A stretch of 35,259 bases of DNA from an uncultured bacterium (lineage in GTDB: Bacteria; Bacteroidota; Bacteroidia; Bacteroidales; CAIWKO01), in NCBI GenBank assembly GCA_903916135.1, contig CAIWVT010000347.1, positions 1-35,259 of the forward strand, written 5' to 3'. Each line of letters starts with the position of its first letter. The stretch's first letter is position 1. The notes beneath the pieces were generated by a model. The model had not been told where the DNA came from. It was given only the letters and a program-made list of their open reading frames with translations, and made no database searches. The position numbers and the translations under genes are program-made. Positions 3,573 to 28,540 of this stretch are shown here, piece after piece.

Positions 3573-3841
3573 CGATAGGAATATTGACCACCACGAGATC
3601 TAAGCTCAATCGTGGCGAAATAGTTCTAAAATATTCATTAATGAAGACATTCCACGTTGTTTAAAGAATTTTCCTCAAACACCACAATTCCCCAAAAAAT
3701 CCACATCCCTTCAATGAGTCGAAAATTCAGCAACGCATGGAACTATGCTTCTAAATGCTTCTAATCACCTTGTTTTCATTGGTTTATGATAAGATAAACC
3801 TTTAGAAAAATGTGTTTTCATCAAAAAAAATACTTACTATT

Positions 3842-4095
3842 GATGTAAAATGCATTTTTCATTGAATCTAGTTAACCAATATGGATGAAAAATACATTTT
3901 CCATTGAATCTAGTTAACCAATATGGATGATAAATACATTTTCCATTGAATCTAGTTAACTTGTTTTGATGAAAAATACATTTTCCATTGAATCTAGTTA
4001 ACCAATATGGATGAAAAATACATTTTTCATTGAATATAGTTATTTTTTTGGATGTAAACTAAATTTTCTATTGAAACTTAGTTCTATATATCAAT
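3842..4095. repeat. 42-bp tandem array (5 good copies plus 1 degenerate)
   Basis: The unit gatgaaaaatacattttccattgaatctagttaaccaatatg starts at 3842, 3884, 3926, 3968 and 4010, an exact 42-bp spacing. A decayed copy starts near 4051. Confidence 0.9.
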
Positions 4096-4267
4096 GCTAA
4101 CTCTATTTTTTTTATAAAATAAATATACATAAAAAAACGATTCAACTATTTCACTAAATAGGTGATTTAGAACATTCTTTGTCATCATATTTCTAAAATA
4201 AATTGCTTTCAAAACATCTATATTTTAAAAAAAATCAATGAATTTTAATAAATTTTCACTAAAAAGA

Positions 4268-4296
4268 TTGTTTAATTATAATTATGTGTATTTTTG
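4268..4296 (+). promoter_or_regulatory. putative Bacteroidota sigma-A promoter for the 4347 ORF
   Basis: TTG at 4268-4270, then 18 bp, then TATTTTTG (matches TAnnTTTG) at 4289-4296, about 50 bp upstream of the ATG. Confidence 0.3.
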
Positions 4297-4346
4297 TGCC
4301 AAAATAAATTTTTCATCGTAGTATTAATTAAAAAAATCGAAAGAAA

Positions 4347-5309
4347 ATGGCAGACAATTATGGCACACACATGGGTAAAAATCCCATAAAGGTATCAATG
4401 GATAGTTGCTTATCCAATGCAGTGGAAATATCACAATCCACCACCGACTCTTTGTTAGCCTACACAGGCAACGACGCAAGAGTGATAGCAGCAAAAAATT
4501 ATCATGTTCCGCTCAATGCCGTTCTGCAGTCGGAAGCTCCAAAGCAAGTTGCGTTCCTTGAAGCACAAAAAACAGCTACTAAACAAGTGAAATTGACGGT
4601 GGCAGATATGCAAATCAACCTGAAGAGTTGGACACGTCAGATTGATGCCGTATATAATGAAGGTACAGAAAAATATGACCTGCTTCTGATTGATGGTGCC
4701 ACAAGTTTTTATAAAGGCTCGCGCACCGACCGTAAAATCCGTGTGGATGCATTGATAGTTGCCATTGGTAGTGATCCACTTTTATCTGACCTGAAAATTC
4801 AAGTGCAGGCGTATTCAGATTTGTTGGCTGGCAAAACTGCTAAACAAAGCAGCGGCAAAACTGCCGTTAAAGACAATTCGGTTTTAGTGAAAAAAGCCGT
4901 TGACAATGCTTCTAAAGGATTATGGTTTGTTTATTGCAGTTTGATATTGGTGTTTATTGAAAATCCGGCTCAGGCGTTGGCATTTTTTCCTATGCGATTG
5001 ATATATAAGGCTGCCAACGAAAAACGTTATATAGTGATGATTTTAGAACATTGCATCAAAAAATTATGTATTCACTTGTTCAAAGCCGGCGAAACCATCA
5101 CGATGACCAATGATGGCACCGTTGATGTGCAAATCGGATTGGCGCTAAACGCAAAATCAACTGTGGTACTGTGGTATAATTTGCCCGCAGGACACACCGT
5201 AACGATTTCTCCGGCGCTGCTTGGCGATCTTTCCTACAAATTTGTGATGCTCAAAAATGAAGATTTAGAACTTAGAGGACATATCACCTTTGTTATTAAT
5301 GTGGCTTAA
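4347..5309 (+). CDS. hypothetical protein (320 aa), no recognisable family
   Basis: Long ORF with normal coding texture and no signal peptide. The N-terminal half looks helical and the C-terminal ~90 aa are beta-rich. Confidence 0.6.
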   Translation: MADNYGTHMGKNPIKVSMDSCLSNAVEISQSTTDSLLAYTGNDARVIAAKNYHVPLNAVLQSEAPKQVAFLEAQKTATKQVKLTVADMQINLKSWTRQIDAVYNEGTEKYDLLLIDGATSFYKGSRTDRKIRVDALIVAIGSDPLLSDLKIQVQAYSDLLAGKTAKQSSGKTAVKDNSVLVKKAVDNASKGLWFVYCSLILVFIENPAQALAFFPMRLIYKAANEKRYIVMILEHCIKKLCIHLFKAGETITMTNDGTVDVQIGLALNAKSTVVLWYNLPAGHTVTISPALLGDLSYKFVMLKNEDLELRGHITFVINVA

Positions 5310-10679: not shown

Positions 10680-10710
10680 AAGATAAACGTATTATCCAAT
10701 CCGCAACCTG

Positions 10711-10779
10711 AAAACTTTAAACTCTGAACTCCAAACTCTAAACCCTGAACTCAAAACTCTAAACTCTGAACTTGAAACC
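10711..10779. repeat. heptamer low-complexity tract
   Basis: Reads aaacttt aaactct gaactcc aaactct aaaccct gaactca aaactct aaactct gaacttg. About ten 7-bp words lie directly after the sufB stop. Confidence 0.8.
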
Positions 10780-10824
10780 TATTCATGCCATCAATCTATA
10801 ATTTTAAATCTAAAATAACAAGTC

Positions 10825-12506: not shown

Positions 12507-12735
12507 TTGCAAACCTTATGACAGATTACGTCTAATTTTAAAAAATCAAGCAAGGTTTGTTAACAGATTAGGTCTGATTTTTTAAAATCATGCAGGGTTT
12601 GTTAACAGATTAGGTCTGATTTTTTAAAATCATGCAGGGTTTGTTAACAGATTAGGTCTGATTTTTTAAAATCATGCAAGGTTTGTCAACAGATTACGTC
12701 TGATTTTTTAAAATCACGCAAGGTTTGTCAAACAT
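12507..12735. repeat. 42-bp tandem array (4 good copies plus degenerate ends)
   Basis: The unit gcagggtttgttaacagattaggtctgattttttaaaatcat starts at 12549, 12591, 12633 and 12675, with a partial copy at 12717. The copies at 12591 and 12633 are identical. A degenerate copy starts near 12509. Confidence 0.9.
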
Positions 12736-13057
12736 CCAAATTGGATATTTTACATTTATTGTATGTTTGAATGTTGATAAAATATGCTTTTTAAGTATAT
12801 TTCTACATCAACATAATGGAATATCTTTCTCATAAAAAATAAACATAGATGAGGATTTAAACCTATACATATTTCAAAGAAATAAAACAATTGTATATCA
12901 ATGTGTTATATCTTTCTATAAAAATAAAATCCACCCAATTCAACGGTTCAGAAGTTTTTCGCTCCATAGCTCCTCTTCTCTATGCAAATAAAATAAATTT
13001 TTGGATTTGGAGCCGTATGCGTCCTGCAAACTTTAAGTACTCCAAACTTTAGGCACT

Positions 13058-17793: not shown

Positions 17794-17882
17794 TAAACCC
17801 CTTACGAGGAGGTTCAAGCCATTGTAAGCCTATCAATATTATAAATATGCAACTTGCTAATAATAAGGTGTGAATTTCTCAA

Positions 17883-18271
17883 TATAGCGGTTAAATAGTG
17901 AAATATAAAAGGTAACACACCAGTAAAAACGGGCAATTAGCTTCATATAGAGATTAACAAACTCTCTATAGACATGAATTTGTCCTCTATAGAGATTAAC
18001 GACCTCTTTATAGACATAAATTTGTCCTCTATAGAGATTAACGACCTCTTTATAGACATAGATTTGTCCTCTATAGAGATTAATGAGTCCTCTATAGAGA
18101 TTAACGACCTCTCTATAGCGGGCAATGAACCAATGATAGCGGGTAATGAGCTCTCTATAGCGGGCAACATCCTCTCTATAGCGGGCAAATAGGTTTATAT
18201 AGCGGGTAATTCATCAAATATAGCGGGCAACAAGCCATATATAGCGGGTAACGCACTACCACTATGTTTCC
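17883..18271. repeat. 21-bp tandem array A (18 in-register units) plus terminal unique 11 nt
   Basis: TATAG anchors fall at 17883 + 21n without a single slip. There are 3 degenerate units, then 8 units of type tataga[g/c]at..., then 7 units of type tatagcggg[c/t]aa.... The array ends in cgcactaccactatgtttcc. Confidence 0.93.
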
Positions 18272-18347
18272 AACAGTTTGTTACCAACGAATGATGTCCT
18301 AATCCAAAATCTCAAATCGTAAATAAGGAGTTACTATCTACATTTTT

Positions 18348-18379
18348 TTGTTTACGTATTGATATTATTAGTAATTTTG
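18348..18379 (+). promoter_or_regulatory. putative promoter for rarA
   Basis: TTG at 18348-18350, then 21 bp, then TAATTTTG (matches TAnnTTTG) at 18372-18379, 17 bp before the ATG. Confidence 0.3.
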
Positions 18380-18395
18380 GGCTTTAATTTGAGAT

Positions 18396-19670
18396 ATGAT
18401 ACGAAACGAACCTTTGGCGGAACAGATGAGACCTGCGAGTTTTGATGACTATATTGGTCAGCAGCATTTGATTGGACGGGAGGCGGTGCTGCGGAAGGCG
18501 ATTGAGGGGGGGACGCTGCCGTCGATGATTTTGTGGGGACCGCCGGGGGTGGGTAAGACGACGTTGGCGTTTATTGTTTCGCGGATGTTGGACCGCCCGT
18601 TTTATACGCTGAGCGCGGTGAATTCGGGGGTGAAGGACGTGAGGGCTGTGATTGAACAGGCGACGGCAGGACGGGAGAAGACGATTTTGTTTATTGATGA
18701 GATTCATCGGTTTAATAAAGGTCAGCAGGATTCGCTGCTGAGCGCGGTGGAGAAAGGGGTGATTACGCTGATAGGGGCGACAACTGAGAATCCGTCGTTT
18801 GAGGTGATTTCGCCGCTGTTGTCGCGCTGCCAAGTGTATATTTTGAAGAACCTGGATGAGGGGGAGCTGCTGAGGATTTTGGGGAAGGCGCAAGGGATTT
18901 TGGAGCAGGAGTTGGGACGCAAGATTGCGGTTGAGGAGAGCGAGGCGTTGATACGAGTGAGCGGCGGGGATGCGAGGAAGTTGTTGAATGCGTTTGAGTT
19001 GGTGGTGGATTCGCAACGGGGGGCTGAGGGGGAGATACGTATAGGGAATGGGTTGGTGATGGATGTGATTCAGCAGAATTTGGCGTTGTATGATAAGTTG
19101 GGGGAGCAGCATTATGATATTATTTCGGCGTTTATAAAGTCGATGCGGGGAAGCGACCCGAATGGGGCGGTGTATTGGTTGGCAAGGATGGTGGACGGGG
19201 GTGAGGATCCGAAGTTTATAGCGAGAAGGATGCTGATTTTGGCGTCGGAGGATATAGGGAACGCGAACCCCAATGCGCTGCTGTTGGCGACGAATTGTTT
19301 TCAGGCGGTGCAGATGATTGGATACCCGGAGTGTGAGTTGATTTTGTCGCAGACGGCGATTTATTTGGCGAGTTCGCCCAAGAGTAATGCGTCGCTGATG
19401 GCGATAAAAAATGCGCACGCGCAGATTAAGCAGAGCGGGAATTTGGCGGTGCCGTTGGCGCTGCGGAATTCACCGACGAAGTTGATGAAGGAGATAGGCT
19501 ACGGCAAGGCGTATAAGTATGCGCATGATTATGAGGATAATTTTGTGGCAGAGGAGTTTTTGCCGAAGGAAATAGCGGGGACGAAGTTTTATGAGCCTCA
19601 AGGGAATGCAAGGGAGAAGGAGTTGCGGGAGTTTTTGAAGAAGAGATGGGGGGGGAAGTATGGGTATTGA
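18396..19670 (+). CDS. rarA: replication-associated recombination protein A (AAA+ ATPase)
   Basis: 424 aa with LAEQMRPASFDDYIGQQHL, Walker A GPPGVGKTT, Walker B ILFIDEIHRFNK, and the C-terminal MgsA domain (ALYWLARM-like VYWLARMVDGGEDP). Confidence 0.92.
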   Translation: MIRNEPLAEQMRPASFDDYIGQQHLIGREAVLRKAIEGGTLPSMILWGPPGVGKTTLAFIVSRMLDRPFYTLSAVNSGVKDVRAVIEQATAGREKTILFIDEIHRFNKGQQDSLLSAVEKGVITLIGATTENPSFEVISPLLSRCQVYILKNLDEGELLRILGKAQGILEQELGRKIAVEESEALIRVSGGDARKLLNAFELVVDSQRGAEGEIRIGNGLVMDVIQQNLALYDKLGEQHYDIISAFIKSMRGSDPNGAVYWLARMVDGGEDPKFIARRMLILASEDIGNANPNALLLATNCFQAVQMIGYPECELILSQTAIYLASSPKSNASLMAIKNAHAQIKQSGNLAVPLALRNSPTKLMKEIGYGKAYKYAHDYEDNFVAEEFLPKEIAGTKFYEPQGNAREKELREFLKKRWGGKYGY

Positions 19671-19750
19671 GTTTTTTAGTTCGGAGTTCGGAGTTTAGAG
19701 TTCCGGAACACTACGAATTACGAATTTGCGAATTACTAATTACGCATTTT
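19671..19750. repeat. 7-8-bp low-complexity tract
   Basis: Reads ttagttcggagttcggagtttagagttccgg, then acgaattacgaatttgcgaattactaattacgcatt, immediately after the rarA stop. Confidence 0.75.
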
Positions 19751-19811
19751 ACAGTGTCAGGAAATAAGTTGAATGGTTTATTGAGTTGGGAATTAAATAT
19801 GAAAAGAGCGC

Positions 19812-19839
19812 TTGATATTATTTTCTTTGTGTATCTTTG
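19812..19839 (+). promoter_or_regulatory. putative promoter for the 19871 operon
   Basis: TTG at 19812-19814, then 17 bp, then TATCTTTG (matches TAnnTTTG) at 19832-19839. Confidence 0.3.
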
Positions 19840-19870
19840 TGGTCTTAATGGTTAAAAATTTTATGTTTCT

Positions 19871-21460
19871 ATGTGTTTAAGTGGTAAAATAAGGTGGTTT
19901 GTGTTGGCGGTGATTTTGGTTTTTGTTGTGGGAGGCTGCAAGAAAAAGGTGAGTCCGAGTTGGGATGTGGCGGTGTATGCTCCTTTGTTGGTGGCTGATT
20001 TGGGTTTTAATGATATAGTGCCTGATTCGCTGTTGGAGATGAACCCCGATAATTCGTTGAACTTGGTGTATAAGTATCAGTTTTATAATTTCTCGTTGGA
20101 TTCGTTGGTGAATTTTCCGGATACTATCTCACATAAGTATTTGCCACCCTTGGGCGGAGTGGTGTTGCATCCGGGACAGATATTTTTTAATTTTACGGAG
20201 AATTCAGTGCTGAATATTCCGAATGCAGATGTGGCGCAAGTGGATTTTCATAAGGGGTTTTTGGTGTTGGAGGTTTTTGCTACGATTACACAGCCATCAT
20301 ACGTTACCTATAAAATACCATACGCGCGGAAAAATGGGGTTGCTTTTCAGGTGACGGAGTTGATTCCGGCAGCACCTGTGGGAGGCACGACGCATGTGGA
20401 ACGGTTGGTGGATTTGTCGGGTTATAGTTTGGATATGAGAGGACCTACACACGTTAGTTCGAACATTTTGACGAATCAAACGATAGCGCAATTGGACGCG
20501 AATGCGGATACGGTTACGATGACGAATGCAGATATTTTTAATTTTAATGTGCGGTTCGAGGATTTGTCGTTTGCATACGCGAAAGGGTATTTCGGTAGTC
20601 AATATACGGTTTTTGGACCTGACACTACGAAGATTGATATGTTTAATAACATCGTGGCGGGTTCGTTTAATTTGGAGAGTGCAAAACTGACCTTGTCGGT
20701 GGAGAATGGCTTTGGGATAGATGCAAGGGTGATGTTTAATAGTATTGCCACGACGAATTCGCAGACGGGTTTAACAACAGCACTTTCGGACCCAATAATT
20801 GGACAGACGATAAATATATCGAGGGCTACGGAGACGTTTAATCCGCTGCAACCTGTGAATCCATCGGTGTATAATTTTGAAATGAATAGCTCTAATATAC
20901 CACAAATTATAGAGAATATGCCTGACAAGATTTCGTATAAAATGCAGGTGACTACGAATCCGTTGGGGAATGTTTCGGCAGGGAACGATTTCATTTATTA
21001 TGGAAATTATTTGAATGCTTCGCTGAATTTGGAGATTCCGTTGTCGTTTATAGCGAACGATTTGACCTTGTCGGAAGATGTGGTGTTAGATTTGGGAACG
21101 TATAACGATAATCCGTCGTCGGGGAAGTTGAAGTTGATTGTGGATAATGGGTTTCCGTTTAGTGCCGATGTGCAGATATATATGTTGGATGCTAATAATC
21201 AAATCAGTGATTCGCTGTTTGTGCCGACTTTGATAGATGCGCCGATGTTAGATGCGGATTATAAAGTGATAAGTCCAAAGCGTTCGGAATTGGAAGTGTG
21301 GTTGTCAGAGAGTAAATATTTGGCATTGTTCAGCACGAAAAAAGTTAGGGTAAAGGCGCGTTTCAACACGGCAGGCGTAAGCAATTTCGTTAAAATCTAT
21401 AGCTATTATAGGCTTAAGTTGAAAGTTACCGGGGATTTTAATTATTTGGTGGAGATGTAG
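19871..21460 (+). CDS. hypothetical lipoprotein (529 aa)
   Basis: Lipoprotein signal with a lipobox-like VVGGC. Beta-rich throughout. The stop lies 5 bp before the next gene. Confidence 0.7.
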   Translation: MCLSGKIRWFVLAVILVFVVGGCKKKVSPSWDVAVYAPLLVADLGFNDIVPDSLLEMNPDNSLNLVYKYQFYNFSLDSLVNFPDTISHKYLPPLGGVVLHPGQIFFNFTENSVLNIPNADVAQVDFHKGFLVLEVFATITQPSYVTYKIPYARKNGVAFQVTELIPAAPVGGTTHVERLVDLSGYSLDMRGPTHVSSNILTNQTIAQLDANADTVTMTNADIFNFNVRFEDLSFAYAKGYFGSQYTVFGPDTTKIDMFNNIVAGSFNLESAKLTLSVENGFGIDARVMFNSIATTNSQTGLTTALSDPIIGQTINISRATETFNPLQPVNPSVYNFEMNSSNIPQIIENMPDKISYKMQVTTNPLGNVSAGNDFIYYGNYLNASLNLEIPLSFIANDLTLSEDVVLDLGTYNDNPSSGKLKLIVDNGFPFSADVQIYMLDANNQISDSLFVPTLIDAPMLDADYKVISPKRSELEVWLSESKYLALFSTKKVRVKARFNTAGVSNFVKIYSYYRLKLKVTGDFNYLVEM

Positions 21461-21465
21461 ATTGT

Positions 21466-22791
21466 ATGAAGAAGCGTTTCATCAAATACACACTCCTATC
21501 CATAAGTTTGCTCATCGCAGAACTTATTGGGACGCCTGCCTTTGGGCAGTATAAATTTACGTATTGTCCCTTAGGAACCTCAGCACCTATGGTGGCTTCG
21601 GAGCATGAAAGCTATCAGGCGATAGATTATCAAAAGATTTATCTTGACTTGACATCCGAGTTATATATGAATTCTAATGGGTTGACGAATCAGTTTGTGA
21701 GCAAGTTCTATTATGGAAGTTTTTTGGATACGCCACTCAAGACACAGAATTGGAATAGGCTTAACGGTCAACATAATCTGCTTGGCTATTTCTTTAACAG
21801 CAGTTTGCGCCTTAATGTTCCTGCAAAAAAGAACGGGTTTAGTTATTATGCTGCATACGAAAACCATAATATGATGGAAGTGAAATTCCATGAAGACTTT
21901 TTTCATCTCATCTTCTTTGGAAATAGAGATTTGGCGGGGCAGTCGGCAACATTCGACAAGCAATCGTTCAAAACGATGAGCTATCAACAATTCAAAGTGG
22001 GTGTGGTAAAAACGTGGTTTAAACAATCGAAAGTTCAGGTTTTTTCTGCAGGATTGGGTTTTAATAATGGTCAGAGTTTGATGGAGTATTCTATTCCGTC
22101 AGCTTCTTTTTTCACACAGGAGAATGCGGAATATCTTTCCTTAGATATGAATGTGAATATGCGACGTTCGGATACTGTTAGGACAAAATTTGGTGCGGAA
22201 AATGGTGCAGGAATGTGTTTGGATTTGTCATTTTATCAACGCAATCCAAAAAGTTCGATTGAAGTTAAAGTGGAAGACCTTGGGTTTATACGTTGGAATA
22301 ACCATTCTCAACAGTATAAAAAGGATACTTTGGTATATTTTGAAGGTATTGAAATTAAAGATATCTTCGATTTGAATTCGGCTACCAACACAGGACTCAC
22401 GCAGGACAGCATCATGAATGAGTTTGCTTTTGGCGATCAATCTGCTTTCACCGAAATGATTCCGATGAGAGCTTCGGTGAATTATACGCATTATTTCTTC
22501 AATAACAGATTGTCGCTGTCGCTGACTTTGATTCATTATCATTTTTTACATTTCAATCCTTTGATTCGATTTGTTCCTACGTATGTCATTTCTATAAAGA
22601 AGTCGAGTATCTGTATCGCACCCAATTTTGAGTACGGGGGTTATGGCAAATTTAATTGTGGGCTTGGTATTTCGGCATCTGTAAAACAGAAATTCTATAT
22701 AGAATTGAGCACGGCTTTCATCAACTCCTATTTGGATGCTAAGAAAGCAGCGGGTTTGGGTGGATTTGTTTCTATAATTAAAACTTTGTAA
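21466..22791 (+). CDS. hypothetical secreted, probably outer-membrane beta-rich protein (441 aa)
   Basis: Signal peptide MKKRFIKYTLLSISLLIAELIGTPAFGQ. Alternating aromatic/polar strand-like segments run to the C-terminus. Tightly coupled to both neighbouring genes. Confidence 0.65.
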   Translation: MKKRFIKYTLLSISLLIAELIGTPAFGQYKFTYCPLGTSAPMVASEHESYQAIDYQKIYLDLTSELYMNSNGLTNQFVSKFYYGSFLDTPLKTQNWNRLNGQHNLLGYFFNSSLRLNVPAKKNGFSYYAAYENHNMMEVKFHEDFFHLIFFGNRDLAGQSATFDKQSFKTMSYQQFKVGVVKTWFKQSKVQVFSAGLGFNNGQSLMEYSIPSASFFTQENAEYLSLDMNVNMRRSDTVRTKFGAENGAGMCLDLSFYQRNPKSSIEVKVEDLGFIRWNNHSQQYKKDTLVYFEGIEIKDIFDLNSATNTGLTQDSIMNEFAFGDQSAFTEMIPMRASVNYTHYFFNNRLSLSLTLIHYHFLHFNPLIRFVPTYVISIKKSSICIAPNFEYGGYGKFNCGLGISASVKQKFYIELSTAFINSYLDAKKAAGLGGFVSIIKTL

Positions 22792-22792
22792 G

Positions 22793-24280
22793 ATGAAAAA
22801 GTCATTACTCTTTTCTTTTTTAACTTTATGTAGTTTAATGTGTCTGCAATATACTATAAAGGCGCAATCTGTAAAGTTTAATCACACCTATGGCAGCATG
22901 GCTTATAACTTCGGCAAACGCATAATTGAAACCAGCGATCGCGGATTTTATATGATGGGTAATGTTAGTGCTGTTTCGGGCAATACCAACATCAGTATCA
23001 TCAAAACCGATTCCTTGGGAATCATTCTATCCGAAAAAATTATTGGTGATGCTTCTCTTTACTGGGCAAACGACTTTATTCGAACTTCCGACAAGGGATA
23101 TCTTATTAGCGGTTTCACCAACAAACATCCAGAAAATGGCTACGACATGTTGTTGATAAAGACAGATTCTAACATCAATATTGAATGGGAGCGCTACTAT
23201 GGTGGCAGCGATTGGGATATTGCGAATGCAGTTGTCGAAACTAAAGACAACGCCTACCTAATGGTGGGGCAAACCTATTCCTATGGTGCTGCAAATGGAA
23301 ATATCTATATTGTCAAAACCAATTATCTTGGTGATACGCTATGGACGCGAACTTTCGGTGGCGATAGTGCAGATTATGCCATGTCTGCTGACGTTCTTTT
23401 TGATAGCACGTATCTCATAGGAGCAACCACCAAGAGTTTTGGATTTGGAGATTATGATGCTTATGTTATCAACCTCAATAAAAACGGAGATACAATATGG
23501 ACAAAAAATTACGGGCAAGACAAAGAAGACATTATTTACTCAATAAAGCAATCCCCCGACTCGGGTTTTGTATTTGTCGGTTCCACCACAAGTTATAATG
23601 CTATTGGGCTTGAAACTTGGTTGATGAAGTTTGATAAAAACCGTAATTATATTTGGAAATTGCCCGAATTCTGGGATATTAAAAATGGCGATCAACTTGC
23701 ATACAATATTAATTTTACCGATTCTGCACATTTTTTGATTACCGGTTATACAACAGCCCTTAATGGCTCTAAAGATTTATCTTTGATTATCATGAGGGAT
23801 TTTGCAAATTTTAAATTCAGCATTACATCCAGTTCATTATTTGATGACGCTGGTTATCAGGCAATACAAACTGCCGATAAAGGCTTTGCTATCGTTGGTT
23901 ATACCGAAGGGTTTGGAACAGCTTTATCCAACTTTTTTGTCGTCAAGATAGGAAATGATTGCAGCTATTCAACTACGTATGAACATATCCTTGATGTTGA
24001 AGAACCTCCGATTGTATCAGAAAATGATTTATTTGGTATTTACCCTAATATCTCTGAAGGGAAATATAATATCAATCTTAAAGAAAGCAACAGCAAGCAA
24101 AACTATGATATTTCGGTTATTAATGTTGTCGGGCAGGAAATATTCAGAGGCAAGTGGGAAACTTCCTTAGGCGACATTTATAAAATAGACATATCAAATG
24201 CTGCTGATGGGATGTATTTCGTTACCGTTGCATCATTCGAAATAAAAAGCAGTTTTATGCTTGTTAAGAGCAGCAAATAA
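22793..24280 (+). CDS. secreted repeat (beta-propeller-like) protein with T9SS C-terminal sorting domain
   Basis: Signal peptide present. At least 6 repeats of the pattern D.GY...G.T.S.G (SDRGFYMMGN, SDKGYLISGFT, KDNAYLMVGQTYSYG, DSTYLIGATTKSFG, DSGFVFVGSTTSY, DKGFAIVGYTEGFG). The C-terminal ~80 aa IYPNISEGKYNINL...VINVVGQEI...IDISNAADGMYFVTV match the type A Por secretion tail pattern. Confidence 0.8.
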   Translation: MKKSLLFSFLTLCSLMCLQYTIKAQSVKFNHTYGSMAYNFGKRIIETSDRGFYMMGNVSAVSGNTNISIIKTDSLGIILSEKIIGDASLYWANDFIRTSDKGYLISGFTNKHPENGYDMLLIKTDSNINIEWERYYGGSDWDIANAVVETKDNAYLMVGQTYSYGAANGNIYIVKTNYLGDTLWTRTFGGDSADYAMSADVLFDSTYLIGATTKSFGFGDYDAYVINLNKNGDTIWTKNYGQDKEDIIYSIKQSPDSGFVFVGSTTSYNAIGLETWLMKFDKNRNYIWKLPEFWDIKNGDQLAYNINFTDSAHFLITGYTTALNGSKDLSLIIMRDFANFKFSITSSSLFDDAGYQAIQTADKGFAIVGYTEGFGTALSNFFVVKIGNDCSYSTTYEHILDVEEPPIVSENDLFGIYPNISEGKYNINLKESNSKQNYDISVINVVGQEIFRGKWETSLGDIYKIDISNAADGMYFVTVASFEIKSSFMLVKSSK

Positions 24281-24315
24281 TTCGTTTTTATATATAATTT
24301 CGATAAATTTTTTAA

Positions 24316-25605
24316 GTGAAAAAAAACAAATTCATAACAATATTTGTGTGGCTATTGATAACTGCACTTTTCATTTTTCTAACATTAAACAAACATTCGC
24401 GTTCTGGAATATTTAATTATCATAGCGAAATTTGGGCTGATAAAGCCGGATATTATGTCTATCTCCCATTGACTTTCATCTATCATTTTGATGCAAGCTC
24501 TTTTCCCGATTCTATTACTGACAAAATTGGTGGTGGTTTTATAATTGACACCATCAACAATGTCGTCAAAACAAAATGCAATTATGGTGTAGCATTATTG
24601 CAGGCTCCTTTTTTTCTTATTGTTCATTTTATAGCAAAACCCCTTGGCTATCCCGATAATGGATTCTCTATGCCATATAACCGCTCCATTGATTTTGCTG
24701 CTGTATTCTACTTAGTAATGGGGTTGTTTTTTCTGTGGAAATATCTAAACAAACGTTTTAGTAAAAAGTTAAGTTTCTTTGCACTATTCTTTTTAATCGC
24801 TGCTACCAACCTGTATTATTATGCAATTGACGAAACAGGAATGTCGCACATTTATTCCTTTGCAATTTTTGCAACATTAATATGGTTGATTGATTTTTTT
24901 GACTTAAAAAAGCAAACGCACCTACTTTTATTATCACTGTTATTTGCCTTATTAATAGTCGTGCGACCTATTAATATAATTTTTATTTTGTTCCTAATCC
25001 TTCTCCAAAAAGACAAACTAAAACTTTGGCTTTCTGATTTCAAAAAAATTAAACCTCAAAAAACTATTATTGTATTACTACCGGCAATGCTAATAATTTC
25101 CTTACAGTTCTTCTATTGGAAATATGCATCAGGAAATTATTTCTCATACTCTTATAAAGGAGAATCTTTTACCAACCTATTTAATCCTCAGATATTCAAG
25201 GTGTGGTTTTCCACACAAAACGGACTATTTATCTACACTCCAATTTGGTTATTTATAATAATAGGTATAGGTAAGATGATTTTTGACAAACAAAAGAACG
25301 GCTGGATGTATCTATCGCTCTTTTTTGTTTTAAGTTACATAATTGCTTCTTGGTGGAGTTGGTCAATGGGATGCGGTTTCGGAAACCGCGCTTATGTTGA
25401 ATACCTAACGATTTTCATCACACCTGCCATCTTCTTATGGAAAAAAATAGCTACTTCTAAAATACTTTCATATAGTATCATTTGCCTATTTGTGTTATGT
25501 GCAATTTATAACCTTCAACTAACGTATGCTTGGGATGGTTGTTGGTATGGAGGTATATGGGATTGGCAGCTTTTGTGGCAAAAGTTTTTATCAACTTTCA
25601 ATTAG
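24316..25605 (+). CDS. polytopic membrane protein, possibly GT-C (ArnT/PMT-like) glycosyltransferase
   Basis: GTG start, 429 aa, at least 10 hydrophobic helices with aromatic-rich loops. The functional call rests on topology and composition only. Confidence 0.5.
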   Translation: MKKNKFITIFVWLLITALFIFLTLNKHSRSGIFNYHSEIWADKAGYYVYLPLTFIYHFDASSFPDSITDKIGGGFIIDTINNVVKTKCNYGVALLQAPFFLIVHFIAKPLGYPDNGFSMPYNRSIDFAAVFYLVMGLFFLWKYLNKRFSKKLSFFALFFLIAATNLYYYAIDETGMSHIYSFAIFATLIWLIDFFDLKKQTHLLLLSLLFALLIVVRPINIIFILFLILLQKDKLKLWLSDFKKIKPQKTIIVLLPAMLIISLQFFYWKYASGNYFSYSYKGESFTNLFNPQIFKVWFSTQNGLFIYTPIWLFIIIGIGKMIFDKQKNGWMYLSLFFVLSYIIASWWSWSMGCGFGNRAYVEYLTIFITPAIFLWKKIATSKILSYSIICLFVLCAIYNLQLTYAWDGCWYGGIWDWQLLWQKFLSTFN

Positions 25606-25623
25606 CAATTTGAATAATCCATC

Positions 25624-26262
25624 CTATTCCTTCCCCTTATACACCCTCTCCCCTGCCAAAATCTCCACCGCCAAATGATTCTCCGCAGGCGGAATCGGAC
25701 ACGAATACTTCGGATTATGATAACAGCACGATGGATTAAAAGCCTTATTAAAATCTATAACCAACTCATCGCCCACCGGAATCTTCAACTCCAAAAACCT
25801 TCCACCTCCATACGTCTGTTTGCCGTTTGTCAAATCCTTAAATGGCAAAAACAAATCATCCTTATACTGCGCATCGTTTATAAGTTTCATATATTGATAC
25901 ACATTCAACTTACACACCTTGCCGTTCAACCAAAAAGTCGCCTCCCCATACTTCCTATACGTGCCCGTATTGCCCTTTGAACGTGGCATTTCAAAAGGCA
26001 CTTCGTTTGGCGTCAGCACTAATTTCGCCACCACCCGATATTTCAACTTTATCTTAAAAAAAGCTATCTTCTTAAACGTCTTCAAACCTTCTTTCGTCAA
26101 CGGACTCTCCGCGCTATCAGCAAACTCCTTATTCATATCGGTTCTATAACTCTCATTATCCTTCACAATTTCCTTCTTCACACTTTGACCAAAAACACAA
26201 TAGCCATTTGCACCAAAAATCATAAGAACAAATGCCAACAACACATAATAAATATACCTCAT
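25624..26262 (-). CDS. DUF1684 domain-containing protein
   Basis: Signal peptide plus the hallmark C-terminal region TNGKQTYGGGRFLEL...IDFNKAFNPSCCYHNPKYSCPIPPAENHLAVEILAGE. Confidence 0.85.
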   Translation of the reverse strand: MRYIYYVLLAFVLMIFGANGYCVFGQSVKKEIVKDNESYRTDMNKEFADSAESPLTKEGLKTFKKIAFFKIKLKYRVVAKLVLTPNEVPFEMPRSKGNTGTYRKYGEATFWLNGKVCKLNVYQYMKLINDAQYKDDLFLPFKDLTNGKQTYGGGRFLELKIPVGDELVIDFNKAFNPSCCYHNPKYSCPIPPAENHLAVEILAGERVYKGKE

Positions 26263-26371
26263 AATCTATTTTTTTTCAAAAATACACAATATTCTCATAC
26301 CAAACATTATTTTCTATCAAATAATTATTCAAGAAATCGTACTTTTGTAAAATCTTGAACATTCAACATAG

Positions 26372-27400
26372 ATGAAACCAACTTCCAACTCTAAAAATAG
26401 CAACCAATATCTTTCATCCGCCTATGCATTCATCAAACGTTTCGGGCTTGATGGATTCATCCTTGCACTGATGAGCATGATTCTGCTCGCATATTTCTTT
26501 CCTCACCTTGGCTCCAAAGATTCCCCTGTACCCCTCTCTGCCATTGCCAACTACGGCGTTTCGCTCATATTCTTCTTCTACGGATTGCGCCTCAGTCCAC
26601 AAAAGCTCCTTGCGGGCATCGCCAATTGGCGCTTACATTTGCTTATCCACAGTGCCACCTTTCTCGTCTTTCCCCTTTTGGTCATCGCGGCGCGCTTGCT
26701 CATCGGCAACGTCATCAACGACCTCATTTGGCTCGGAATTTTCTTCCTCGCATGTCTCCCTTCCACGGTCTCATCCTCCGTCGTCATGGTCTCAATTGCG
26801 CGCGGCAACATTCCGGCAGCCATCTTCAACGCCAGCATCTCCACGCTAATCGGAGTATTCATCACCCCGCTTTGGATGGGCATCTTCATGAACTCCTCCA
26901 CCCAATCGCTCGACCTCCTCCCCATCATACTCAAACTAACTCTTCAGGTGCTCCTACCCGTCATCCTTGGCATCCTACTACATTCCAAATGTGGCGCATT
27001 TGCCGAACGCCACCGCAAACAACTACGCTATTTCGACCAATCCATCATCCTACTCATTGTCTTCACCGCCTTTTGCGAATCCTTTGCCCAGCGCATGTTT
27101 CAGGGCTATTCCCTGCTCTTTCTCATCCTCTTGGGAGTCGCCTTATGCGTGCTGTTCTATCTGGTCTATGGCATCATATACCTCACCTCCAAACTCCTCA
27201 AATTTAACCGCGAAGACAAAATCACAGCCATGTTTTGCGGCTCCAAAAAATCCCTTGTCCACGGCACCGTCATGTCCAAAATCCTCTTCGCCCACAGCCC
27301 CTATATCGGCATCATCCTGCTGCCCATCATGATGTATCACGCCCTGCAGCTCATTATGGTCTCCATCATCGCACAAAGGATGGCGAGGAGGAAGGTATGA
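26372..27400 (+). CDS. bile acid:sodium symporter (BASS/YfeH-like) family transporter
   Basis: 342 aa, about 9-10 TM helices. The LDGFILALMSMILLAYFFPHLG start and CLPSTVSSSVVM motif are typical of the YfeH/BASS group. Confidence 0.8.
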   Translation: MKPTSNSKNSNQYLSSAYAFIKRFGLDGFILALMSMILLAYFFPHLGSKDSPVPLSAIANYGVSLIFFFYGLRLSPQKLLAGIANWRLHLLIHSATFLVFPLLVIAARLLIGNVINDLIWLGIFFLACLPSTVSSSVVMVSIARGNIPAAIFNASISTLIGVFITPLWMGIFMNSSTQSLDLLPIILKLTLQVLLPVILGILLHSKCGAFAERHRKQLRYFDQSIILLIVFTAFCESFAQRMFQGYSLLFLILLGVALCVLFYLVYGIIYLTSKLLKFNREDKITAMFCGSKKSLVHGTVMSKILFAHSPYIGIILLPIMMYHALQLIMVSIIAQRMARRKV

Positions 27401-27491
27401 AGTACTTAAAGTGCCTAAAGTACTTCAAGTATTTAATGTACTTAGTGAATTGTGATGGGTTATTTTAGAATGTTATTTATAGCAAAGCTCG

Positions 27492-27763
27492 GGAAACATA
27501 GTGGTAGTGCGTTACCCGCTAAAAAGAGGAAGTTGCCCGCTAAAAAAAGGAAGTTGCCCGCTACAGAGAGGAAGTTGCCCGCTACAGAGAGGAAGTTGCC
27601 CGCTACATAAACCTATTTGCCCGCTACAGAGAGGAAGTTGCCCGCTAAAAATAGCAAATTGCCCGCTACAGTGAGGAGGTTGCCCGCTACAGAGAGCTAA
27701 TTACCCGCTGTCAATTGCTTGTTGCCCGCTAAAGAGAGGAAGTTGCCTGATGTTGTGATTATA
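27492..27763. repeat. 21-bp tandem array B (11 good units plus 1 degenerate), an inverted copy of the CGGGCAA part of array A
   Basis: Units tt[g/a]cccgcta + 11 nt start at 27512 + 21n. The array is preceded by ggaaacatagtggtagtgcg. Positions 27492-27521 are the exact reverse complement of 18242-18271. Confidence 0.93.
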
Positions 27764-27852
27764 ATGGAGTGAGTTTGTATCTTATATCTGATGCTATGCA
27801 AAAGTCCGAAGGACTGAAATTATTGTAGAAAATTATTAAGATAGACCTATAT

Positions 27853-27949
27853 AAAATCCCGAAGGGATGAAATTATAATGTCACCCATTCTGGGTTTTAT
27901 CATTATCTGAATTCTGTGTTCTATAATATTATCATCCCTTCGGGATTTT
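27853..27949. repeat. inverted-repeat pair built on tccc-gaa-ggga hairpins
   Basis: The sequence aaaatcccgaagggatgaaattataat (27853-27879) pairs with ataatattatcatcccttcgggatttt (about 27924-27949) as an imperfect inverted repeat about 45 bp apart. A related agtccgaaggactgaaattat lies at 27803-27823. Confidence 0.7.
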
Positions 27950-27970
27950 AGCATAATGTGTAACATCAGT

Positions 27971-28329
27971 TATAAAGAGATGAAAAAGCTCTCTATAGAC
28001 ATGAATGAGCTCTCTATAGAAATGAATTTGTTCTCTATAGACATGAATGAGCTCTCTATAGAGATGAATTTGTCCTTTATAGACATGAATGAGCTCTCTA
28101 TAGAGATGAATTTGCCCTCTTTAGACATTAATGAGCTCTCTATAGAGATGAATTTGTTCTCTATAGACATTAATGAGCTCTCTATAGAGATTAATATGTT
28201 CTCTATAGAGATGAATGAGCCATTTATAGACATTAATGAGCTATTTATAGAGATGAATTTGCAATTTATAGAGATGAATTTGTCATTTATAGAGATGAAT
28301 TTGTCCTCTATAGCGTTCTATAAATTCTC
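27971..28329. repeat. 21-bp tandem array C (16 in-register units plus 1 offset partial unit)
   Basis: TATAG anchors fall at 27994 + 21n up to 28309. Units alternate between tatagaCatgaatGAGCTCtc and tatagaGatgaatTTGTyCtc, giving a 42-bp super-period. The core ctctatagag is a 10-bp palindrome. Confidence 0.93.
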
Positions 28330-28540
28330 CAAACAGCCTATTGACCACTTTACAGCCAAAAACATGCTTTTTTATATATTTTATGCTCAATAATTAGTAT
28401 TTATAGCTTAAAACTTAATATTTAAACCTTAAAACTTGATATTTTAGGTCACAAATCACCAACTTTAGGAAATGGATAGGAAATTCTTAGTGCCTCTTAG
28501 TGCTCTTAGTGCCTCAGTGGTTTCTTTTATAAATCAAAAA

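Follow-up and report, generated by a model that had tools for sequence, protein, structure and literature searches.

Array C, an intergenic tandem array of 21-bp units, is best explained as an orphaned upstream multi-site DNA element with a period of two helical turns, which would derive from an array of one particular gene family; from the sequence comparisons we put the probability of this reading at about 0.55. The array lies in the window, by which we mean the whole stretch of 35,259 nucleotides analysed here, the longest contig of a 4.59-Mb MAG (679 contigs, 38% GC, 4.7% contamination) that is assigned to Bacteroidales by its proteins. Its units have one-to-one counterparts in other lineages and combine a conserved core with a variable spacer. 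Arrays related to it stand upstream of the members of a single protein family, hereafter the partner family, and array C itself lacks such a neighbour. The features on which the argument rests are collected in Table 1.

Table 1. Coordinates of array C, its parts and the other features of the window.
Feature	Position	Strand	Description
Complete gene and array module	3838..5309	+	42-bp array 3838-4083, 263 bp upstream of gene 4347-5309
Array A-left	17946..18113	+	8 TATAGA units, alpha subfamily; relic CGGGCAA-like leader unit at 17925
Array A-right	18114..18260	+	7 CGGGCAA-type units in the same register as A-left; tail common to array B and contig C451
Array B	27511..27747	-	11 CGGGCAA-type units and tail; head faces the head of array C
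MITE-like dispersed hairpin element	27785..27972	.	~190 bp; abuts the head of array C
Array C	27973..28329	+	17 in-register 21-bp units; TATAGA family, beta subfamily; non-coding
Higher-order zone of array C	27994..28203	+	five 42-bp dimers of type 1 (TATAGACATGAATGAGCTCTC) and type 2 (TATAGAGATGAATTTGTyCTC)
Five 3' units of array C	28204..28308	+	individual identities, one-to-one in G004 and L153 (20-21 of 21 bases)
Terminal degenerate unit of array C	28309..28329	+	TATAGCGTTCTATAAATTCTC; kept in G004, G017, L151 and L153
Tail flank of array C	28330..28434	+	accompanies the array; CAAACAGCCTATTGACC and an AT-rich mini-repeat of 21 bp (28380-28444)

Anatomy of array C

We numbered the units of array C from a unit 0 that starts at 27994, the others following at 27994+21n. 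The 16 in-register units of the original prediction were all recovered, the register being kept without any indel, and a further degenerate unit was found ahead of them at 27973. TRF described the array at a period of 21 (15.5 copies, 78% matches, score 326) as well as at a period of 42 (7.7 copies, 86% matches, score 405). A strict alternation of two unit types had also been predicted. It holds for units 0-9 (27994-28203), where unit identity reaches 0.93 at lag 2 against 0.76 at lag 1 and where both types carry a few point variants. The last six units break it: a hybrid (unit 10, G at position 7 with GAGCC) is followed by a type-1 unit (unit 11), by three consecutive type-2 units (units 12-14) and by the degenerate tail (unit 15), which resembles a relic CGGGCAA-type unit. 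With all 17 units included, the excess at lag 2 is modest, as it was reached in 789 of 20,000 shuffles of the unit order.

A perfect 12-bp palindrome (TCTCTATAGAGA) arises wherever type 1 is followed by type 2, and only an 8-bp palindrome (TCTATAGA) where type 2 is followed by type 1; strong and weak dyads therefore alternate every 42 bp. The 42-bp super-period may be regarded as a higher-order repeat, in which one dimer (strong, then weak palindrome junction) would have spread over the ten gene-proximal units by in-register conversion or unequal exchange, with the number of units remaining constant. Single-stranded array C folds strongly (z = -6.15), a property in keeping with slippage or conversion, and one that an RNA role would fit as well. 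The Rfam and tRNA scans of the whole window were empty. A 145-aa ORF crosses the array (27956-28393) and had no Pfam match, and the variable positions of the unit make up one block (7, 10, 14-19) instead of a three-base, codon-like pattern (66 units from five arrays). Judged by these two properties of the sequence, array C is non-coding. No pairing inverted repeat was found at its ends, where the sole candidate was a weak AT-rich match of 26 nt (73%).

Conserved core and unit-level orthology

Three copies of the TATAGA family are assembled in this genome, namely A-left (8 units), array C (17 units) and an array on contig C213 (8555-8848, 14 units). Among 40 relatives searched, such arrays were present in two (G004 and G017, both of the same genus), and four metagenome contigs also carried them. 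The family is divided into an alpha subfamily (A-left, C213, L150, L152), with ATTAACGACCTCTC units and a CAATTAG leader unit, and a beta subfamily (array C, G004, G017, L151, L153), which is marked by the tail unit TATAGCGTTCT, the flank CAAACAGCCTATTGACC and the AT-rich 21-bp mini-repeat. Across 66 units from five arrays, information content was 1.2-2.0 bits at unit positions 20, 1-6, 8-9 and 11-13, approximately 1 bit at positions 19 and 21, and below 1 bit at positions 7, 10 and 14-18. The aligned units thus show a 15-bp core that is conserved and centred on the palindrome, and a 6-bp spacer that varies, across subfamilies and species. Solitary, operator-like copies of the core elsewhere in the genome were considered and rejected: outside the arrays there was no copy of CTCTATAGAG, and the 15-bp core had only 13 matches with two or fewer mismatches (raw count).

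The closest relatives of array C are the array of the sister species G004 (82% over 447 bp, ungapped) and one on a metagenome contig (86.5% over 444 bp). Array C and the arrays of G004 and L153 align without gaps, at 16 units each. Units 7-15 match at 17-21 of 21 bases across the three, units 12-14 being nearly identical, and the flanking genes of these array-bearing lineages differ by 7-15%. Since the units keep their identity across diverged lineages, array C is no hypervariable VNTR. This genome shows the dimer pattern most sharply; L153 shows it in part, and G004 and G017 lack it. A parallel at the strain level is provided by C213 and L150, between which one unit is replaced by the unit two places away and the length is the same.

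A partner gene family with arrays upstream

In G004, G017 and L153, the beta-type array is located between homologues of the partner gene, which this genome carries on contigs C213 and C510, and of a gene on contig C390. It lies 250-390 bp upstream of the start of the C213/C510 homologue and reads away from it. On C213 itself, the member of the same family has an alpha-type array 197 bp upstream. Each of the more remote homologues, at 52-63% identity, is preceded by a 21-bp array at a distance of 210-330 bp. Those of the homologues at 61% and 55% identity are of the TATAGCGGG(C/T)AA type (TATAGCGGGCAA and GATAGCGGGTAAT), like A-right and B, and read away from the gene; one of the two ends in a GGGCAACGC tail resembling the tail of A-right and B. 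A further two homologues are preceded by 21-bp arrays of other kinds. For one homologue, an IS element replaces the upstream region. Paralogues of the partner gene on C588 and C203 carry arrays of their own. The C203 array (L163, 711-1065), upstream of its paralogue, has 84% matches at period 42 and 64% at period 21, and this two-type super-period means that dimer alternation recurs in the gene-linked class.

We call an array gene-linked when a paralogous orphan gene, encoding a helical domain with or without a beta-sandwich, lies about 70-400 bp downstream of it and each paralogue has a unit sequence of its own. Such a gene is found at the arrays of G004, G017, L153 and C213 and at those of the homologues in other species. 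Array C has none: no member of the partner family is encoded in the window, down to E = 1, and array C is hence an orphan. Contigs C510 (at its start) and C390 (at its end) both stop at contig ends that face the beta-array gap, so a second beta-type copy with its partner gene may be unassembled there. With a MAG contamination of 4.7%, C213 and C510 could stem from two strains.

The partner proteins (~320 aa) combine an all-helical domain of ~225 aa with a transthyretin-like beta-sandwich. A profile from ten close homologues recovered 854 representative proteins, of which 362 at E <= 1e-10, and the part common to the 854 is the N-terminal ~225 aa, found alone or with the C-terminal beta-sandwich. 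An AlphaFold model from 16 sequences (pLDDT 84) predicted residues 5-235 to be all-helical and to be followed by the transthyretin-like sandwich; a single-sequence model was of no use (pLDDT 34). Structural or sequence relatives were found for the beta-sandwich only. The helical domain had no match in Pfam, PHROGs, NCBIfam, PDB sequences or Foldseek (PDB and BFVD) and is, as modelled, a new domain. Searches of the partner protein revealed no DNA-binding fold and no ParB or RHH match.

Arrays A, B and C as a probable single lineage

Several claims of the original prediction about the arrays of the window were borne out. Array C reads in the same direction as the TATAGAGAT half of array A, and array B is inverted, being the reverse complement of the CGGGCAA half of A. 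A period of 42 bp had been noted at two other arrays, and TRF finds it at 3838-4083 and 12521-12752. The A and B/C loci are also not a simple inverted duplication, as A-left is an alpha array whose closest relative is that of C213 (85.5% over 173 bp) and array C is a beta array with other kin.

The step from there to a modular assembly of unrelated array types did not survive. TATAGA and CGGGCAA units have a common frame, consisting of TATAG, five bases, AA and then a terminal CTC. Relic CGGGCAA-like units flank the TATAGA runs in arrays A, C, C213 and G004, as leader units in A, C213 and G004 and as the TATAGCG tail in the beta arrays. Moreover, homologues within a single gene family are preceded by arrays of either type. 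The shared frame, the relic flanks and the common gene family point to turnover inside one lineage, followed by dispersal by rearrangement. The comparison of A with C that had been proposed as a refutation gave a divided answer: 15 of 21 unit positions are common, which goes far beyond the palindrome, and none of the flanking sequence is. The CGGGCAA-type copies assembled in this genome are A-right, B and the end of C451, and the terminal unit and flank of B are also present in the other two. Overall, arrays A, B and C look like one evolving lineage and not like unrelated modules assembled together. Their anatomy suggests that a newer TATAGA variant would have expanded inside an older CGGGCAA array, that array A would be a half-replaced stage, and that copies would later have been scattered by rearrangement.

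The locus around array C

Array C is bounded by the 3' ends of two genes, one for an SBF-type transporter and one for a DAGK-type (YegS-type) kinase. The 1140-bp gap between the two genes is identical in an independent assembly from another ENA sample (L154), which is 99.925% identical to the window contig over 8 kb; the contig is therefore not a chimera at array C. A third record has the same gene order and gap length. The 225 bp separating B from C are mostly a separate, dispersed MITE-like repeat. The MITE-like element has ~15 copies at 70-90% identity, is partly self-complementary and contains terminator-like hairpins on both strands; several of its copies lie 50-300 bp from unrelated 21-bp arrays (C331, C552, C268, C258, C661). 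Short dispersed repeats were observed at 27400-27444 (AAGTACTTA-type 9-mers, which also adjoin the array in metagenome contig L151) and at 28485-28515 (CTTAGTGCC-type 9-10-mers, with many copies genome-wide). No DNA-binding gene was found adjoining arrays A, B, C, C213 or C451.

The outgroups G006, G013 and G017 share the order sulfatase, DAGK, array, rarA ... SBF ... g10825. Relative to these three, the rearrangements of this genome fall exactly on array A and the B/C gap. The rearranged gaps of the window (10680-10824, 17794-18395 and 27401-28540) all hold tandem repeats, and in G006 and G013 the gap upstream of rarA holds a 21-bp array too, with unrelated units. In the sister species G004, the 3' flank of DAGK carries a different 21-bp array (ATCCATTTCTGAGGGCCGTCA), and sequence homology ends approximately 10 bp beyond the stop codon.

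An extreme third-position G/T skew in this part of the window belongs to the flanks of A-right and B (18396-27400), the push towards G and T being on the strand whose 5'->3' direction leads away from the array. The GC3 skew of rarA is +0.81 versus approximately 0 in the outgroups, with 61% G and 6% C versus about 26% and 27%. The same skew is present in DUF1684 and SBF of G004, and the rarA and SBF flanks examined in that genome contain no TATAGA or CGGGCAA array. As G004 is skewed without these arrays, the skew process is not tied to them. In place of the arrays, the region upstream of rarA in G004 (L149 = G004:C93, reverse-complement 2480-2840) has 60-bp repeats in which C makes up 2%. The idea that array C has a skew gradient of its own was rejected, since no gradient starts at the array on its right side. 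Over the whole genome, GC skew in the 1.5-kb flanks rose by more than 0.2 from left to right three times as often at arrays as at other gaps (19% vs 6%).

Genome-wide survey of arrays and linked genes

TRF returned 432 rows at a period of 21 bp for the whole genome, with 34 and 32 rows at 20 and 22 bp. There were 161 rows at 42 bp (16 at 41 bp, 25 at 43 bp), 63 at 63 bp and 37 at 84 bp. After overlapping rows were merged, at least 279 arrays of 100 bp or more had a period of 21 bp or a multiple of it, and merged arrays of any length numbered 439 on 273 contigs. The 279 arrays grouped into 181 sequence families, of which 124 were single-copy; 95% of their bases are non-coding, with genes called crudely as longest ORFs, and 85 arrays touch contig ends. 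Arrays longer than approximately 400 bp are beyond the length of short-read assembly. Array C belongs to this class of non-coding, intergenic arrays with a period of 21 bp or a multiple.

Inverted-repeat arms of at least 5 bp were present in 24% of the units, compared with 9% of shuffled units. Convergent and divergent gaps hold arrays at about twice the share that these gaps have among all intergenic gaps. The variable positions across all arrays cluster weakly (12.7% of arrays at p<0.05). A heptamer origin of the 21-mers was rejected because shift-7 self-similarity (0.259) was not above that of other shifts. We also rejected the idea that 42-bp arrays in general are decayed 21-bp dimers (similarity of 0.29 at shift 21 vs ~0.275 at other shifts, in 58 arrays with a 42-bp period only); array C is an exception to this lack of a 21-bp sub-period. 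As for the relatives, G013 had about six arrays in 120 kb, G010 none in 47 kb, and G006 a single array of at least 100 bp in the 91 kb sampled, plus two next to rarA. None were seen in a second genus of this family (140 kb covered) or in a second family (86 kb covered). The sequence sampled suggests that the trait is patchy within the genus.

Thirteen paralogue clusters were enriched beside arrays, with 58 of their 81 proteins array-adjacent against a baseline of 9.5%; in the best cluster, nine of the 11 members were (p = 3e-8). Expansion with HMMs raised the set to 105 proteins, 69 of them array-adjacent, and the array was upstream of the start in 56 of the 69 (median 153 bp). Enriched families thus have 56 arrays upstream versus 13 downstream, compared with 189 versus 164 for all array neighbours. 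Within these families, each paralogue has a different unit sequence, and only about a quarter of the arrays (69/279) adjoin an enriched-family gene. The window itself contains a complete module, whose gene belongs to an 11-member paralogue family. All seven array-adjacent members of that family have an upstream array of 42-bp, not 21-bp, period; the period therefore follows the protein family. In a small AraC-type family, four of the five genes have an array just past their 3' ends. At C52:12644-14469 and C75:15375-17241, an AraC-type HTH gene, a 21-bp array and a family gene occur in this order, with different units. We did not find the pairing of a gene with a 21-bp array described in the literature searched, in which the nearest relative was BrickBuilt.

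Origin of array C and alternative explanations

Under the preferred reading, array C would descend from an array that normally lies 200-400 bp upstream of a partner-gene start codon, with its first unit facing the gene and its degenerate tail pointing away. A rearrangement in this genome would have parted it from that gene and placed it head-to-head with the orphan array B, between convergent housekeeping genes and with a MITE-like element in between. The conserved core would be the putative binding site of a dimeric, sequence-specific protein, and its repetition on one face of the helix would create a cooperative multi-site element with a regulatory or marking role for the gene next to it. 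The putative binder could be the partner protein itself or another factor. An orphan such as array C may be an inert relic or may be bound in trans. Against this explanation, plain co-inheritance with fast drift would give the same differences between the arrays of paralogues. The absence of a DNA-binding fold from the search results for the partner protein, the low share of arrays that adjoin an enriched-family gene, the small number of core matches outside the arrays and the weak clustering of variable positions across all arrays also count against it.

A functionless minisatellite, neutral or selfish, is an unlikely but serious competitor. It would spread by slippage, unequal exchange and ectopic recombination and persist where it is harmless, and its association with gene families would come from co-duplication with the gene or from a tolerance of long gaps upstream. 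Much of the survey agrees with this, including ~180 unrelated unit families with 124 single-copy, orthologous sites that hold different arrays in close relatives, arrays at synteny breakpoints and the existence of orphan copies; the strong single-strand folding of array C favours slippage. However, slippage leaves unexplained why the periods are 21, 42, 63 and 84 and not 10, 11, 20 or 22, why 16 units correspond one-to-one across three lineages, why a 15-bp core is kept across subfamilies and species beside a free 6-bp spacer, and why the enriched families have a 56-to-13 upstream bias when the overall ratio is 189 to 164. Strict 21n periods in unrelated sequences could also mean that only the period is selected, the arrays serving as a sequence-independent structural element whose in-plane bends produce a curved or stiff segment that pins supercoils or insulates. 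The roughly twofold over-representation of convergent and divergent gaps among array sites fits this idea, as does a wedge model (with assumed parameter values), in which the end-to-end/contour ratio was 0.56 (array C) and 0.65 (typical array) versus 0.82 (ordinary 357-bp tiles of the window). Real and shuffled units have the same bend, though (16.2 vs 16.1 degrees per unit, p = 0.43), which gives no support to selection for intrinsic unit bend. The conservation of the TATAGA core and the link to particular gene families also go unexplained, and a purely structural role is improbable.

It is very unlikely that the array acts as RNA, as a string of hairpins in a 3' extension of the DAGK gene (or in a 5' leader in the complete modules). 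Neighbouring palindromes can indeed pair in the single strand, and the terminator-like hairpins are in the MITE beyond the array, with none between genes and arrays. But there is no Rfam family match, the palindrome is symmetric, as in a DNA site for a dimer, and in the complete modules a Bacteroidota-type -7 box was recognised by eye between array and gene, so that the array would lie upstream of the promoter. Iterons or a partition centromere of a plasmid or other integrated replicon are hardly credible here, despite the resemblance of ~20-bp direct repeats with a palindromic core to iterons and to parC/sopC sites, and despite a GC skew that switches from minus to plus at the B/C gap. The neighbours are a transporter and a lipid kinase, Pfam scans of ten genes around A, B and C found neither rep nor par, the genes on either side are chromosomal and keep their synteny in four relatives, and the genome has at least 279 arrays. 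Just as remote is an assembly artefact, for which a fragmented MAG with 679 contigs and 4.7% contamination might speak, or a coding role of the 145-aa open frame that spans the array: the independent assembly is identical, related arrays are found in several other genomes and metagenomes, and the ORF has neither a protein-family match nor codon-like variation.

Comparison with known repeat systems

BrickBuilt of Porphyromonas gingivalis is a single family with a 23-nt unit and 19 copies; it is spacer-less, multi-copy and always intergenic, with small inverted-repeat ends, distinct leader and tail subunits and reported promoter activity (Klein et al. 2015, PMC4596501). The arrays described here resemble it in their Bacteroidales host, in their spacer-less, intergenic tandem units of ~20 bp, and in being multi-copy. 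A conserved tail unit with its flank and relic leader units are present as well and may correspond to its leader and tail subunits. The promoter activity of BrickBuilt makes a regulatory role plausible. Unlike BrickBuilt, the present arrays have a period of exactly 21 bp or a multiple, comprise ~180 unrelated families and are associated with particular gene families; no terminal inverted repeats were found, and the TATAGA family has only three assembled copies.

Other systems offer partial parallels. In F sopC-SopB (43-bp repeats), R1 parC-ParR and plasmid iterons-Rep, the sites adjoin the gene of their binder. Like these, our arrays are evenly spaced, partly palindromic sites near a candidate cognate gene, and the site differs for each paralogue. 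In contrast to them, they are chromosomal, number hundreds per genome and include orphans, and the partner protein has no recognised DNA-binding fold; no parA/parB-type, parM/parR or Rep gene was present among the scanned neighbours of A, B and C. The direct half-sites araI1-araI2 of the AraC family are ~21 bp apart, centre to centre. The likeness lies in asymmetric sites placed every two helical turns upstream of a promoter and in the small AraC-type genes that adjoin four arrays of this genome; the difference lies in the number of sites (two to four in AraC systems versus 8-17 here) and in the TATAGA arrays having no adjoining AraC-family gene. In eukaryotic satellites such as alpha-satellite, diverged monomers are homogenised as multimers. 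Array C is similar in its homogenised dimers, with older degenerate variants at the edges, but it measures hundreds of base pairs and not megabases, belongs to a prokaryote and keeps its unit number between species. As to CRISPR, the units of array C abut without spacers, and no cas gene was found among the scanned neighbours.

Implications

Extending the preferred reading further is speculative and on balance doubtful. The 225-aa helical domain and the other array-linked families might form a large, unrecognised group of sequence-specific DNA-binding proteins, in which each paralogue would read a private lattice with a period of two turns and the unit type would co-evolve with it (CGGGCAA to TATAGAGAT). 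The orphan arrays A, B and C might then be bound in trans as landmarks or sinks, and would not be dead relics.

Long non-coding repeats are generally regarded as scarce in bacterial genomes. Against that expectation, 1.6% of this genome consists of arrays under a strict length rule of two helical turns. Because they break short-read assemblies and mark rearrangement points, they matter for MAG quality and for synteny analyses. One array lineage is now tied to a specific, testable gene family, and its unit number and sequence core are kept between species. What was an unexplained length ruler thereby becomes a concrete hypothesis, in which the array would be an upstream multi-site element with a cognate factor.
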